Shown: positions 4,453 through 52,033 of the stretch, one piece after another
Numbering within the stretch: the first letter of the stretch is position 1
Layout: each line of letters starts with the position of its first letter
Position numbers and translations under genes: made by a program
Notes under the pieces: model-generated
Told to the model about the DNA's origin: nothing
The model's database searches: none
The model's input: only the letters and a program-made list of their open reading frames with translations
Source of the DNA: Chakrabartia sp.
GTDB taxonomy: Bacteria; Pseudomonadota; Alphaproteobacteria; Sphingomonadales; Sphingomonadaceae
NCBI GenBank assembly: GCA_040398625.1
Contig: JBBATS010000001.1
Span: 47,212 to 111,211 of the forward strand
Length of the DNA: 64,000 nt
Reading direction: 5' to 3'

Positions 4453-5001
4453 GGACGGCGCTTAGCATTGATGGCGGCAAGTGTAAGCTTTCTGGCCACG
4501 ATCTTTGGATCGCCCGCAATGGCGCGGCCATCTGGCGATTTCGAAACAGAGGTATTGGCGGCGCATAATGAAGAGCGGGCAACCAAGGGCGTCCCGCCGC
4601 TCGTCTGGAATGACGCGCTTGCCCGCGATGCGGCTGGATGGGCGGGGACACTCAAAGGAAGCGCAACGCTGCGCCATGCCGGGGTTCAGGGGCAGGGCGA
4701 GAACCTTTGGATGGGCACGCGGGACTATTTTGCGCACGCAACGATGGTGGGTGATTGGATCGAGGAAAAGGCAGATTATCGCCCCGGCCGGTTCCCCGAT
4801 ATCTCGCGCACGGGCAAATGGTCCGATGTCGGCCACTATACCCAGATCATCTGGCGCAACACGCGTGAGGTCGGCTGCGCCGTCGCGACGGATGCCGAGT
4901 TCGATTATCTCGTCTGTCGTTATTTTCCGGCGGGCAATTGGATGGGGGAAGACCCGCTTGGCAGTCATGCGCCGCGTGTTGCGGGCTGGCTCGGCGAGTA
5001 A
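4447..5001 (+). CDS. Secreted CAP (SCP/PR-1-like) domain protein
   Basis: LAAHNEER, LVWNDALA, QGENLW, GHYTQIIW, VGCA, LVCRYFPAGN; signal-peptide-like N-terminus. Start is 4447 or 4471. Confidence 0.88.
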   Translation: MHGRRLALMAASVSFLATIFGSPAMARPSGDFETEVLAAHNEERATKGVPPLVWNDALARDAAGWAGTLKGSATLRHAGVQGQGENLWMGTRDYFAHATMVGDWIEEKADYRPGRFPDISRTGKWSDVGHYTQIIWRNTREVGCAVATDAEFDYLVCRYFPAGNWMGEDPLGSHAPRVAGWLGE

Positions 5002-32808: not shown

Positions 32809-32847
32809 CTCTATGGTCGCGACCGGTCATCTGACGACCGTCGCTGA

Positions 32848-33035
32848 CAGCGCGGGAGAGAGGTTCGTTTAACGGACCCGCCGAAGGAGCAACCGCCCCG
32901 GAATCTCTCAGGCAAAAGGACCGCGCTGACATATGTGACACTCTGGAAAGAGTTCCAGCGAAAGCTGGAGCCGCCGAAGGGGTAACTCTGGATTTGATCC
33001 GGAGGAAAGCTCTCAGGTTCCCGTGACAGAGGGGG
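32848..33035 (+). ncRNA. Tandem glycine riboswitch
   Basis: Aptamer 1: GGAGAGA...CGCCGAAGGAGCAA...AATCTCTCAGGCAAAAGGACC. Aptamer 2: CTCTGGAAAGAG...CGCCGAAGGGGTAA...AAGCTCTCAGG...GACAGAG. Directly upstream of gcvT. Confidence 0.95.
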
Positions 33036-48420: not shown

Positions 48421-48996
48421 TTAACCCGGCCAGTGGCTGATGACGTCTGATGGAGCGGGGCGGGGCCGCTCGTCCAATTCGCGACTGGGGGAGCCGATGA
48501 AAATGAACCCGGCAATGCGCTCCTCCTCGCCGCCAAAGGCATCTCGGACCTGATCAGAATAGCTCGGCCATCCCGTCAGCCAGCCGCCGACCAACCCTTG
48601 GGCATGGACGGCATTGAGCAACTGCATACAGGCCGCACCCACCGACAATTCCTGCTCCCAAAGCGGGATCTTGCTCGCCTTTGGGCTGGAGAGCGCGACG
48701 ACCAGCGCCGGGGCCTGATGCGCGAACTGCTCCATGGCTTCGATCTCAAGGCGTCCTGCTTCAGGCTTCTCGCTGCGATAGGCGTCCACAAGGAGCGCAG
48801 AAAGCCTATCCCGCTGGTCCGCACCGACCACAACGAAACGCCAAGGCGCCAGCTTGCCATGATCCGGCACGCGGGTTGCAGCGGCAAGAATGGCGTCCAT
48901 CTGCGTTGCATCCGGGCCGGGCGCAATCATGTCACGCGGCTTGCCCGACCGACGGGTGAGGAGGAGGCTGAGCGGGGAGGAGGTGTCGTTGAACAT
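48421..48996 (-). CDS. Nitroreductase family protein (YdjA-like)
   Basis: LLTRRS, VPDHGKLAPWRF, EQELSVGAAC, WLTGW, GFIFIG; start at ATG 48996. Confidence 0.92.
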   Translation of the reverse strand: MFNDTSSPLSLLLTRRSGKPRDMIAPGPDATQMDAILAAATRVPDHGKLAPWRFVVVGADQRDRLSALLVDAYRSEKPEAGRLEIEAMEQFAHQAPALVVALSSPKASKIPLWEQELSVGAACMQLLNAVHAQGLVGGWLTGWPSYSDQVRDAFGGEEERIAGFIFIGSPSRELDERPRPAPSDVISHWPG

Positions 48997-49049
48997 AGAT
49001 GCGCCGCTATCAGGCGGGGGCGGGTGGGGCAAGCGGGACCCATCCATCT

Positions 49050-49073
49050 AAACCTCCCACCACTCGTTTGCCC
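49050..49073 (+). repeat. Left direct repeat of the WYL cassette
   Basis: AAACCTCCCACCACTC-GTTTGCCC versus AAACTTCCCACCACTCCGTTTGGCC at 51411. Confidence 0.7.
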
Positions 49074-49130
49074 TGCGCCTGTCGAAGGGCTGTCCTTTCT
49101 TTTCCACTCAGGTGAACAGGAAGAGCGGTT
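49065..49130. repeat. Truncated REP-like element, family E (left arm only)
   Basis: CGTTTGCCCTGCGCCTGTCGAAGGGCTGTCCTTTC. The expected complementary right arm (TTCGACA..CTCAG..CGAACG) is absent after GGAAGAGCGGT. Confidence 0.6.
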
Positions 49131-49231
49131 ATTCAACTAGCGACATCAAGGCGTACATGTACCCTGCGAACCTCGATTGGTTGCATCTGCAGAGATCGCG
49201 GAAATCTAACCGAAGACGGTTCAAGCCGCCC

Positions 49232-49861
49232 TCAGGACTTGTTTTTCTTAGTACCGGATGCCGTGTTCGATAGCGCCTTGACCAGTAGACCTGCCGCGAT
49301 ACCAAACACGCAGGGGAAGGCGTGGCCAACCTTGATTTGCCCGTGATCGCTGACCAGCAGATCTATTGCAAAACCGATCAACACACCCGCCCAGGCCAGT
49401 CCAAGGCCGGCACGCCCAATCCGACCAGCCACGATCACAAATCCGCATAGAGCCATGTAAGCCTGCGACGCACCGGATAGAAAAGCCTCGGGTTCGAGGA
49501 ACACCAGTAGTGCCTGGCTCAGTGTCCCGCCCGCCAAGGCAATTGTGCCTGGAAGAACCCGGCCCCAGCGTGCCTCAGCGGCTAGGCCCACGCCGCCAAT
49601 GACCAGCGCATTGAGCAACATGTGCGGCGCTTTCACGTGGAGCCACTGTGATGCGATGAGTTTCCAGCTCTGCTTCCAGCTAAAATACTCGCCCTTGATC
49701 ACGCCGAAGTCCAAAAGTTCTCTTGAACTTTGCTGCGCCCCGAGCGGCTGATGGAGCGCAAAGGCCGCGGCGCACCACACAACCAAAAGGCTGACGGCCC
49801 AGAGCAAAAGCGGAGATGACAGCACCCTCACGGATTGGTCACCAACAGGCCCGATTGCCAT
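49232..49861 (-). CDS. Rhomboid-family intramembrane protease-like protein
   Basis: Multi-TM; WKLIASQWLH, HMLLN, SGASQ (GxS motif), H in GHAF at the catalytic His position. Confidence 0.72.
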   Translation of the reverse strand: MAIGPVGDQSVRVLSSPLLLWAVSLLVVWCAAAFALHQPLGAQQSSRELLDFGVIKGEYFSWKQSWKLIASQWLHVKAPHMLLNALVIGGVGLAAEARWGRVLPGTIALAGGTLSQALLVFLEPEAFLSGASQAYMALCGFVIVAGRIGRAGLGLAWAGVLIGFAIDLLVSDHGQIKVGHAFPCVFGIAAGLLVKALSNTASGTKKNKS

Positions 49862-50196
49862 CAGTCCGCCTTAAGGGCGGCAAGCTCGTTTCCGCTCGGA
49901 TCGCGGAAGTGGAAGCGCCTGCCGCCCGGAAAGGCGAATACCGGTTTGGTAATGACGCCTCCCGCCTTGCTTACCGCTTCGAGGGATGCTTCCAGATCAT
50001 CGACAGTAATGACCGTGAGCGGTGCCGAAGTGGCCTCGCTTGAGTCGGCCTGCAGGCCGATGTCCACATCGCCCGTCATCGTGCACGAGTAGCTGGGGCC
50101 GAAGTCGGTGAGGGCAAAGCCAAACGTATCGGTATAGAAGGACCGGGTTGCGGCTAGGTCCGATGCGGGTAGTTCAACGAAGCTGATACGAGCCAT
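49861..50196 (-). CDS. VOC/glyoxalase/bleomycin-resistance family protein
   Basis: ISFVELPASDL, FYTDTFG, VDDLEASL, FPGGRRFHFRDPSGNEL; TGATG coupling. Confidence 0.9.
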   Translation of the reverse strand: MARISFVELPASDLAATRSFYTDTFGFALTDFGPSYSCTMTGDVDIGLQADSSEATSAPLTVITVDDLEASLEAVSKAGGVITKPVFAFPGGRRFHFRDPSGNELAALKAD

Positions 50197-50561
50197 TATT
50201 TGCCCTCCTGAGGTTTCTTGCGCGGCGTCTTGGTTTTCGGCTTTAGGCCTGCCGCACTGCGCGCTATCCATGACCTGAGGCTCTCGGGATCGGACAGCAT
50301 CGCTTCGGGCAACAGCAGATAGGTCTTGCTCGGCGGATCTTCCGGCTCATACCGGAGCGGCTTCACGCCCGGCACCGCGCTCAAGGCCGCATGCTCTGTG
50401 CCAGTCATCTTGAGGGCGATTCCCACATTCGAGAGAGACACGAACACTTGGCCCGCAGCATAGCCCATGATCCCGCCGAACATTGGGCGAAAGCTCAGTT
50501 CAAGGTCGGGTGGGCTCGCCCTCTCCATGACGGCTTGCAACTCCTTTGGATCGTGCTCCAT
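50196..50561 (-). CDS. TfoX/Sxy N-terminal domain protein
   Basis: RPMFGGIMGY, IALK, SKTYLLLP, LRSWIARS; TAATG coupling to the VOC gene. Confidence 0.82.
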   Translation of the reverse strand: MEHDPKELQAVMERASPPDLELSFRPMFGGIMGYAAGQVFVSLSNVGIALKMTGTEHAALSAVPGVKPLRYEPEDPPSKTYLLLPEAMLSDPESLRSWIARSAAGLKPKTKTPRKKPQEGK

Positions 50562-50607
50562 TCCATGCCTCACCGTCGTTGAATCAAAGCTATGCATACA
50601 CGATGCC

Positions 50608-50629
50608 TACTGCCAACGTAGTGTCAGTA
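50608..50629. promoter_or_regulatory. Putative WYL/YafY regulator binding site
   Basis: TACTGCCA-N6-TGTCAGTA (7/8 palindrome) abutting the regulator ATG, with no RBS. Confidence 0.65.
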
Positions 50630-51357
50630 TGACACGTCGCGCCGATCGCCTCCTTGCCCTGCTCGAATTGCTGAGAGGCAGCCAAGTTAGCACTGCTTCG
50701 AGCCTCGCCGCGACGCTCGAAGTGTCTATCCGCACCGTTTACCGCGACATTGATGCTCTTGTCGCAACAGGCGTACCGCTTCGCGGCGAAGCGGGGGTTG
50801 GTTACACGCTGGAAGCCGGTTATCATCTACCGCCGCTCAATCTTACGACCGAAGAAGCCGAGGCATTGGCGCTCGGCGCGCGAATGCTCGCCAACTGGAG
50901 CGACGGGGCCGTGGCCGGGCAAGCAGCTGCGGCGCTGGCGAAGATAAGGGCCGTCCTGCCCTCGTCGGGCCAAGCTGGGGTCGACCAGAACATATTCTGG
51001 GCACCGCCCTGGGTGGAACGCCATGTACCCAAGGTCGACCTGCTCGAACTGAAGCGCGCCGCACAACGCCGGCAGGTGCTTTTGATCGAGTATGAAGCGC
51101 TGAACGGCGCACGCACCACCCGCACGGTTCGCCCGCTTTCGGTCAACTTTTTCGGCCCGGTTTGGCTGCTGGCGGCTTGGTGCGAGCTTGCCGACGACTT
51201 TAGGTGTTTCCGGCTTGATCGGATTGCTTCCATGTTGCCGACTGGCACAACGTTTCGTGACGAAGATGGGAAGCGACTTGCTGATTTCAGGCGGATCAAG
51301 ACCGAGGAAGTGAGCCGGGCTGCGTTTGATAACGGCGTCAGGACCGAAGGATTTTGA
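50629..51357 (+). CDS. YafY-family HTH-WYL transcriptional regulator
   Basis: RADRLLALL, EVSIRTVYRDI, GEAGVGY, LPPLNLT, RTVRPL, WLLAAWCELADDFRCFRLDRI. Confidence 0.93.
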   Translation: MTRRADRLLALLELLRGSQVSTASSLAATLEVSIRTVYRDIDALVATGVPLRGEAGVGYTLEAGYHLPPLNLTTEEAEALALGARMLANWSDGAVAGQAAAALAKIRAVLPSSGQAGVDQNIFWAPPWVERHVPKVDLLELKRAAQRRQVLLIEYEALNGARTTRTVRPLSVNFFGPVWLLAAWCELADDFRCFRLDRIASMLPTGTTFRDEDGKRLADFRRIKTEEVSRAAFDNGVRTEGF

Positions 51358-51410
51358 CACGGTTTGAAGGGCGGCGTGTTGCGCCTTTTCCTGAACTCGG
51401 ACATGGCAGC

Positions 51411-51435
51411 AAACTTCCCACCACTCCGTTTGGCC
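51411..51435 (+). repeat. Right direct repeat of the WYL cassette
   Basis: See 49050; followed by CGAAGG, a remnant resembling the REP arm TCGAAGGG. Confidence 0.7.
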
Positions 51436-51445
51436 CGAAGGATAT

Positions 51446-51859
51446 CTACTGATCCGTCCCCTTCGCCTTCCCCCATTGCCGCGCGACGGTGTAGCCGAGA
51501 TAGCCGGTGCCGAAGAGCGTCCACATAGGTTCCGGGATGCCGCCGAGATAGGCGTTCATGCCAGCCGCGATGTTCTTCGCCATCTCGGGTTGCGTGGCGG
51601 CGATGAGGCCCATGGGGATGGCCCAGAGGATGATCGCGTACATCACATAAAGGAAACTCGGCCGCGCGCGGCTGGTCCATGGGTCGGTGGAGCCGGCCTC
51701 CGCGATGATCGCCGACATCTGGACGCGGACGGCCTCCAGCTCCTGCGATCCTTGCAGTTTCAGCAGTTCCAACTTCGCCGCGTCGCGGGCGCGGGGGTCT
51801 GGAATGATCTTGTCGATCAGCTTGGAAAGGGGCGCAATCAGCCCGTCGAGAAGGGACAT
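51446..51859 (-). CDS. Holin, GTA-type 3TM family
   Basis: LIDKIIPDP, IIAEAGSTDPWTSRARPSFLYVMY, LFGTGYLGYTVAR. Confidence 0.82.
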   Translation of the reverse strand: MSLLDGLIAPLSKLIDKIIPDPRARDAAKLELLKLQGSQELEAVRVQMSAIIAEAGSTDPWTSRARPSFLYVMYAIILWAIPMGLIAATQPEMAKNIAAGMNAYLGGIPEPMWTLFGTGYLGYTVARQWGKAKGTDQ

Positions 51860-51888
51860 GGCAACGACTCCGAATCTGGGGGAAGGAT

Positions 51889-51920
51889 TTGGAGATAACC
51901 AAATAGGTTCTAAAAGTCAA
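51889..51920 (-). promoter_or_regulatory. Putative sigma70 promoter of the holin with a palindrome in the spacer
   Basis: Minus strand TTGACT-N17-TATCTC; AGAACC-N5-GGTTAT at 51895-51911; the most AT-rich intergenic stretch noticed. Confidence 0.5.
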
Positions 51921-51950
51921 GTTTTATATAACCATTTCGACACAAGTCCC

Positions 51951-52023
51951 CCCGCTTGTCCCGAGCGAAGTCGAGGGACGTTGGCACGGAGCCGGTGTCT
52001 CGACTTCGCTCGACACGAACGGG
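51951..52023. repeat. REP-like palindromic element, family A
   Basis: CCCGAGCGAAGTCGAGGGAC...GTGTCTCGACTTCGCTCGAC; inverted homolog of 5009-5064 with a longer loop. Confidence 0.85.
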
Positions 52024-52033
52024 ATTGGGTAGT

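Follow-up and report, generated by a model that had tools for sequence, protein, structure and literature searches.

Repetitive extragenic palindromic (REP) sequences are join points of duplications and targets of insertion sequences. Among transcription factors that combine a helix-turn-helix (HTH) and a WYL domain, SiwR of mycobacteria is a dimer that binds both single-stranded DNA (ssDNA) and a palindrome and activates a divergent operon of small stress enzymes upon zeocin or H2O2, and some siwR loci have glyoxalase-like neighbors (PMC10693628). Both themes meet in a 64-kb stretch of a Chakrabartia sp. genome (contig JBBATS010000001.1), which we call the window and within which all coordinates are positions. 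Here, a four-gene module encoding a WYL regulator and a TfoX_N, a VOC, and a rhomboid protein lies between direct repeats at a broken REP element, in the spacer separating a gene transfer agent (GTA) holin gene from a nitroreductase gene. The original prediction for this locus was a REP-anchored, integrase-free gene-cassette system. With moderate confidence, we favor a module of the mobile-element type lodged in a REP-seeded, lineage-specific hotspot between the GTA holin and the nitroreductase, with the history and function proposed below. What the locus displays is ordinary genome plasticity and not new cassette machinery, because the repeats are the duplicated ends of a common sphingomonad REP.

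Like REP sequences, bacterial interspersed mosaic elements (BIMEs), and REP doublets forming hairpins (REPINs), the element studied here is an intergenic imperfect palindrome with arms of ~21 nt that is dispersed in sphingomonads and forms a strong hairpin in relatives, and, as in REP-mediated rearrangements, the joints fall in or beside the REP. It differs in that one intact and one trimmed arm lie in direct orientation, at a low density (one full arm per 64 kb), and in that no REP-associated transposase is visible among the open reading frames (ORFs) scanned; mobility genes were sought by Pfam among chosen ORFs across 1 to 29 kb and ~41 to 63 kb of the window. As in integration hotspots and genomic islets, close relatives have nothing, a REP, or differing small pieces of cargo between the same two core genes, although this insert is very small at 1-2.4 kb, lacks an integrase, and has a duplicated REP end as its boundary. 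Integron cassettes and pdif (XerCD) modules are likewise small gene units found in many contexts without a recombinase of their own, whereas the present module has neither an attC- or dif-like site nor IntI, shows no conserved site at its ends in the contexts scanned, and brings its own regulator, promoter region, and terminators.

The orthologous junctions carry the case for insertion. A nitroreductase scan of a genome collection gave 80 loci, to which homologue look-ups added more relatives; among the 80, the holin gene stays beside the nitroreductase gene only in Chakrabartia godavariana (L001). A neighbor-joining tree built from the DNA of the holin, nitroreductase, GntR, and metallophosphoesterase genes groups the relatives as ((window, L249), L001, L258) and (L253, (L255, L256)), with L249 the closest relative at 7.3% DNA divergence from the window. 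The junction measures only 46 to 72 nt, with no REP and no cargo, in L253 and L255-257, and 170 to 180 nt, with one intact REP hairpin, in L001 and L258 (z-scores of −4.4 and −5.7, respectively). In L249, L251, and L252, it spans 1143 nt and contains a complete REP hairpin (z-score of −5.9) and, in the opposite orientation, an LMWPc gene that resembles low-molecular-weight (LMW) phosphatase genes, and in the window it holds the four-gene WYL module. Because these junctions contain nothing, a REP alone, LMWPc plus a REP, or the module, the WYL module is an insertion and the site a small hotspot. This agrees with the predicted insertion at a REP-bearing spacer, the same junction being empty with an intact REP (L001 and L258) or without any REP (L253 and L255-257). 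The expectation of an empty site with one repeat copy and an intact REP was borne out in part: the REP hairpin is intact in L001 and L258, and one REP arm occupies the position of the left repeat, but the agreement on a single restored repeat is loose because the 16-mer core of the repeat is not recognizably conserved there. The LMWPc-family gene of the sister lineage (L249 4973-5548, also present in L251 and L252) lies on the opposite strand and encodes 191 amino acids with a Tat/Sec-like signal, RRRLLAVAISVAAAATLPRQASA; its product has no NCBIfam match.

The two repeats have the same sequence in the same orientation, as had been noted: AAACCTCCCACCACTC on the left (49050-49065) and AAACTTCCCACCACTC on the right (51411-51426) share a strand and are the only matches to the 16-mer within the 64-kb window at no more than 2 mismatches, against a shuffle expectation of 0.05. 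Aligned with gaps on the minus strand, the repeat reads CCTTCG[ACAGGCGCAG]GGC(C)AAACG(G)AGTGGTGGGA(G/A)GTTT, which is longer than originally given, and none of 500 shuffles reached its alignment score. The copies bracket the four genes, again as proposed, and sit in both spacers that bound the insert. Taken by itself, a single 16-mer pair would be unremarkable across all position pairs in 64 kb; a chance match unlinked to the insertion is nonetheless scarcely credible, given the shuffle results, the placement of the copies in those two spacers, and the reach of the gapped match into a REP arm.

Because a REP-arm fragment precedes each copy on the gene strand, the direct repeat is the duplicated outer end of a REP, consisting of part of the arm and a G-rich tail (AGTGGTGGGARGTTT). 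The left repeat, on the nitroreductase side (49050..49090, plus strand), comprises the 16-mer tail at 49050-65, GTTT, and the surviving REP arm GCCCTGCGCCTGTCGAAGGGC at 49070-90; the right repeat, on the holin side (51411..51441, plus strand), is made up of the 16-mer tail, CGTTTGGCC, and CGAAGG, in effect a REP right arm with a 10-nt internal deletion. Written on the gene strand, the nitroreductase-side copy is GCCCTTCGACAGGCGCAGGGC-AAACG-AGTGGTGGGAGGTTT and the holin-side copy is CCTTCG-[10 nt missing]-GGCC-AAACGG-AGTGGTGGGAAGTTT. The distance from the left repeat to the nitroreductase gene equals that from the REP right arm to the same gene in L249, L001, and L258. The arm, CCTTCGACAGGCTCAGG(GCGAACGG), belongs to a dispersed sphingomonad palindromic family, with 15 matches at no more than 2 mismatches across the 80 sphingomonad loci and the window. 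Because this family is dispersed and yet the 64-kb window has a single full arm, two copies within 2.4 kb are tied to the insert.

In the window, the REP has decayed. The left repeat abuts the arm at 49070-90 and a loop without its partner, and the right repeat is followed by CGAAGG, so that a broken REP on one side and a remnant on the other are present as described. In L249, the REP loop runs on into an intact second arm. Relative to that genome, the window's loop remnant (49091..49128, plus strand) has lost the partner arm in a deletion of ~190 nt between the short repeats GGAAGAGCGGT and GGAAAAGCAGT, two similar 11-mers that bound the deletion when the window is set against L249. The window element is a broken member of the REP family, since its remnants do not fold (hairpin z-scores of −0.07 for the loop remnant and −0.06) while the orthologues in L249, L001, and L258 do. 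A trans-acting REP nuclease had been offered as a possible mechanism; neither window end can fold as a REP hairpin, and such an enzyme would therefore find no present substrate here. We read the window repeats as inert scars and not as active cassette ends.

Two further observations concern REP-type elements. In L001 (9848-9938), the orientation of the REP loop (GGTGAACAGGA.AAGC) with respect to the flanking genes is opposite to that in the window (49091-49128) and L249 (5850-5905), an arrangement that would result from a flip of the loop between inverted arms or from an independent REP insertion. A second, different REP-type palindrome, CGCTTGTCCCGAGCGAAGTCGAGGGAC ... GTCTCGACTTCGCTCGACACGAACGG, occupies 51948-52026 in the interval between the holin and DUF885 genes, with one outer flank C-rich and the other G-rich; because of it, the holin gene has REP-type elements on both sides.

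The sister lineage L249 shares both edges of the slot. Beside the nitroreductase gene, the REP loop, right arm, and tail AGTGCCGGGAAGTTTAGA are common to the two genomes (88% identical over window 49129-48908), and one slot edge, GTCGCTAGTTGAATAACCGCTCTTCC at 49119..49144 (minus strand), matches L249 5653-5678 colinearly at 22 of 26 positions, the shared stretch also being given as GTCGCTAGTYGAATWACYGCTYTTCC. On the holin side, L249 has a degenerate copy of the repeat at 4933-4967 (E=1e-5) followed by ATGTCCGAGTTCAGGAAAAGG, the other slot edge, which lies at 51384..51404 (minus strand) in the window and is identical at 21 of 21 positions in L249 beside different cargo. Between the shared edges lie the LMWPc gene in L249 and the WYL module in the window, which shows the repeats to be older than, or independent of, the WYL cargo. 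Reading the holin-side spacer of L249 as a remnant of the REP loop was rejected, as the alignment was not significant (41/500 shuffles). A short reading frame, MSEFRKR..., starts at the shared 21-mer and has its beginning conserved in L249; it may be the stump of a lost gene.

Outside this locus, the module occurs in several other contexts. The exact WYL and holin proteins occur only here, in two public assemblies, and WYL homologues are numerous at 80 to 95% identity, with module relatives at 77.9 to 90.5% DNA identity. At 95% WYL identity, the same four genes are found within a conjugative-element backbone on 20 contigs (TraG/TrwB, RHH, YAcAr, PadR, SSB, and DUF736); in L085, the nearest copy outside the window sits between the TraG/TrwB gene and the PadR/SSB/DUF736 genes. 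A second conjugative-element context, at 86% WYL identity, has VOC-TfoX/WYL between TraG-S41-RES-Rce1-HAD and SSB. In these two backbones (L085-L092 and L263-L267), the module has the gene of the TraG coupling protein on one side and SSB on the other; the rhomboid gene is part of one version, and an Rce1-like protease, HAD, and RES are near the other. A three-gene version without the rhomboid, at 80 to 86% WYL identity, occupies four unrelated chromosomal settings: adjoining an insertion sequence, amid toxin-antitoxin-like genes, near a truncated integrase in Brevundimonas bacteroides, and between TatD and MetRS. The plasmid database held no close copy of the module. These contexts argue that the WYL-regulated module was horizontally acquired and is of a type that conjugative elements transport as cargo.

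The conjugative-element copy also indicates where the transferred unit ends. By blastn, window 49161-51377 aligned with L085 6532-8749 at 90.5% identity over 2218 bp, and the module proper (four genes, 2.2 kb) extends over 49161..51383, its ends being judged by eye. The shared unit falls short of both repeats, by 27 nt on the right and by ~90 nt on the left. An 11-nt match to the conjugative-element copy (GCGGTTATTCA) across a 26-nt gap was rejected as too short to extend the unit reliably. The direct repeats (49050 and 51411) do not delimit the transferred unit (49161-51383), and the same repeats flank other cargo in L249. No flanking direct repeats, REP arms, or hairpins were found at the module ends in L085, L093, L095, L245, and L247, the five other contexts scanned. 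The idea that the repeats are the ends of a cassette, or of the module, does not survive these comparisons.

A cassette system of the kind originally predicted would use the REP arm and tail in trans, through a REP-associated tyrosine transposase or another recombinase, to insert and swap cargo. The REP outer end would then be a reusable recombination site defining an exchangeable slot, with small integrase-free modules exchanged there through REP-guided homologous recombination or by an enzyme that the host supplies or that acts in trans, and REPs would be docking sites for cargo released from conjugative elements. The different cargo of two sister lineages between the same repeat-bearing flanks would suit such a system, as would an insert placed exactly at a REP where REP copies are otherwise rare. 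We nevertheless regard it as unlikely. The cargo junctions have no common motif, the five other module contexts checked have neither REPs nor repeats, the repeats are separated from the shared module by 27 to ~90 nt, neither window end forms a hairpin, no recombinase was detected among the ORFs scanned, and the 16-mer is not a recurring site among the metagenome and viral matches listed. Among those matches (at least 148 loci), none extends into the GTTTG/REP context and none of the loci encodes the window's proteins, and we therefore discarded them as chance matches. A REP-anchored, integrase-free cassette system is thus unsupported, because the repeats are REP-derived scars that lie outside the transferred unit, are shared around other cargo in the sister lineage, and are absent from the module contexts scanned.

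The predicted lack of a nearby integrase or transposase held, as no integrase, transposase, or recombinase, and no REP-associated tyrosine transposase, was matched by Pfam among the ORFs scanned. A site-specific integrative element finds no integrase or recombinase match among the ORFs scanned, and the neighbors are core genes. The hallmarks of a transposon or insertion sequence are missing, with no terminal inverted repeats, no transposase in the ORFs scanned, and a repeat of 31 to 40 nt. So are those of an integron cassette, as there is no conserved terminal site across the contexts scanned and no integrase in the ORFs scanned, and the module, unlike an integron cassette, has its own regulator and promoter region. 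A tRNA-type attachment site was rejected, since tRNA and Rfam scans found neither a tRNA nor a known RNA family at the site.

A decayed integrative element is a further alternative. According to this explanation, an integrative and conjugative element or island integrated here, the repeat serving as the attachment core; subsequent deletions left each of the two lineages with different cargo genes in a remnant flanked by attL and attR that resembles a cis-mobilizable element (CIME). The direct repeats, the lack of recombination genes, and the conjugative-element-type cargo are indeed shared with CIMEs, the nearest relatives of the module are cargo of conjugative elements, and the window and L249 share the repeats while the remaining genes differ and no integrase is left. 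We consider this origin doubtful, however, as no remnant of a conjugation or integrase gene lies between the repeats, the L249 insert has no similarity to conjugative-element flanks, and the conjugative-element contigs have no copy of the repeat. Moreover, the duplicated stretch includes a REP arm, which fits a homology-driven duplication better than a short integrase core, and in contrast to CIMEs, the repeats here are REP-derived.

The history that we favor, of a module lodged in a REP-seeded hotspot, can be set out in four steps. The junction comparison shows that a sphingomonad REP hairpin entered the spacer at the root of the clade. In the last ancestor shared by the window and L249, DNA appears, at least in outline, to have inserted beside or into this REP, with duplication of the REP outer end. 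The likely mechanism is recombination through REP homology, whether a circular piece entered by one crossover or the join was illegitimate. What lay between the copies would then have been exchanged or differentially lost, giving LMWPc in the sister lineage and the WYL module in the window. Finally, as sequence comparison shows, deletions in the window removed one arm of the REP and shortened the other copy.

Several points weigh against this history. The holin-side copy goes on matching the L001 flank (TTGCTGCCATG versus TTGCCTGCCGTG), and a simple single crossover predicts otherwise. Either copy of the repeat could be the original, and it is the nitroreductase-side copy that keeps the orthologous distance to the gene. 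The 15-nt tail accompanies none of the other REP copies in the 80 related loci, and only two lineages carry the duplicated-repeat arrangement. For the order of events, an ancestral larger island followed by differential loss fits equally well. If the ancestor of the wider clade already carried the module or a larger island, the empty sites would be deletions between the repeats; direct repeats favor deletion, and the divergence of the module from the conjugative-element copy (9.5%) is near that between the window and its sister (7.3%). Such an early presence is distinctly unlikely, however, because two successive outgroups (L001 and L258) and the second clade (L253 and L255-257) all lack cargo, and the junctions without a REP are just 46 to 72 nt long and have no repeat scar. 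The proposed function, discussed next, comes from domain content only.

The four genes were assigned by Pfam, in agreement with the identities originally proposed. The rhomboid-family membrane protease (49232..49861, minus strand; 209 amino acids; PF01694) retains the catalytic motifs H..H..N, GASQA, and GHA, as read from the translation, and is an accessory part of the module, being missing from the three-gene versions L093, L095, L245, L247, and L263. The single-domain VOC/glyoxalase protein (49861..50196, minus strand; 111 amino acids; PF00903 and PF22677) is bleomycin-binding-protein-like, its closest solved structures being Rv0577 and bleomycin-binding proteins. Against the NCBIfam BLMA family it scored 24.5 bits, under the cut-off of 140, and by this measure it is assigned only as a general member of the VOC fold. 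The TfoX_N-only protein (50196..50561, minus strand; 121 amino acids; PF04993) starts as called in public assemblies (L081); an alternative upstream ATG at 50597 would give 133 amino acids. The TAATG and TGATG overlaps between these minus-strand genes are read directly in the sequence, as first reported. On the plus strand, the HTH_11-WYL transcription factor (50629..51357; 242 amino acids; YafY/PafC-like) has HTH_11 at residues 7 to 59, HTH_PafC, and WYL at residues 138 to 201, all above Pfam cut-offs. Its closest solved structures, PafC, PafBC, and CapW, are distant (E 1e-9 to PafC). A known defense system was rejected as an identity for the module, since PADLOC matched its generic WYL model alone. 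An ORF of 365 amino acids (50823-51920, minus strand), with a low GC3 of 0.59, starts inside the holin gene and crosses the right repeat and, in antisense, the WYL gene; it is almost certainly spurious.

The region between the divergent WYL and TfoX_N genes is 67 nt long and includes an operator-like inverted repeat, CTGCCA-N6-TGTCAG (50610..50627), that abuts the WYL start codon. Written CTGMCA-N6-TGTCAG, it is kept next to the WYL start in all six of the module copies aligned, and in Brevundimonas it is a perfect palindrome. With its own WYL regulator, this conserved operator-like palindrome, terminator-like hairpins at both ends, and multiple contexts elsewhere, the module matches the predicted picture of self-regulating mobile cargo. 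As in the systems of SiwR, DriD, and PafBC, which are HTH-WYL regulators of DNA-damage-responsive genes, the gene of an HTH-WYL protein diverges from a small operon of stress enzymes, and the promoter region between them includes a palindrome; the similarity to solved WYL regulators is only distant, however, and the targets here are TfoX_N, VOC, and rhomboid genes and not DinB-like genes. By analogy with those systems, an HTH-WYL dimer would bind the conserved palindrome in the divergent promoter, and after genotoxic stress, binding of ssDNA by the WYL domain would switch on the TfoX_N-VOC-rhomboid operon. The WYL regulator is thus likely an ssDNA sensor that controls this operon, and the probable role of the VOC protein is to bind or detoxify a bleomycin-like genotoxin.

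The module is flanked by the nitroreductase gene (48421-48996 or 49047, minus strand) and the GTA_holin_3TM gene (51446-51859, minus strand), both assigned by Pfam. Deletion between the repeats would leave ~88 nt from the holin stop codon to the conserved nitroreductase ATG, close to the ~85 bp originally estimated. Gene callers give the nitroreductase 191 to 218 amino acids, with the placement of the start varying, and the left repeat provides GGGAGG 5 nt ahead of an upstream nitroreductase ATG at 49047. Just upstream of the conserved ATG, a 31-nt stretch (49002-49032; minus strand, TTGCCCCACCCGCCCCCGCCTGATAGCGGCG) is identical or nearly so in L001, L249, and L258, and even the clade without a REP (L253 and L255) retains its core, CCTGATAGCG(G/C)C; the stretch may be a regulatory site for the nitroreductase-GntR-metallophosphoesterase operon. 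The metallophosphoesterase gene, 3′ of GntR, is intact in the window, L251, and other relatives (253 to 263 amino acids) and split in L249 and L250 into ORFs of 98 and 153 amino acids (L249 7026-7787), likely by a frameshift or as a pseudogene. Elsewhere in the window, the scanned ORFs encode core functions (glyQS, ppdK, Tad pilus genes, hrcA, guaA, prolyl oligopeptidase, and panB), and a glycine riboswitch aptamer at 32843-32933 (76.5 bits) is the sole Rfam match at the gathering threshold. Composition gives no signal of foreign origin because the GC content is flat at ~0.6.

Although the locus does not reveal a new mobility mechanism, it is a small, clean example in which a REP hairpin, once inside a tight intergenic spacer, can make that spacer a hotspot where close relatives hold different acquired genes. 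The WYL-regulated TfoX_N-VOC(-rhomboid) module circulates in alphaproteobacteria on conjugative elements and can reach the chromosome without its carrier. For the study of WYL regulators in genotoxic stress beyond actinobacteria and Caulobacter, the module is a compact candidate.

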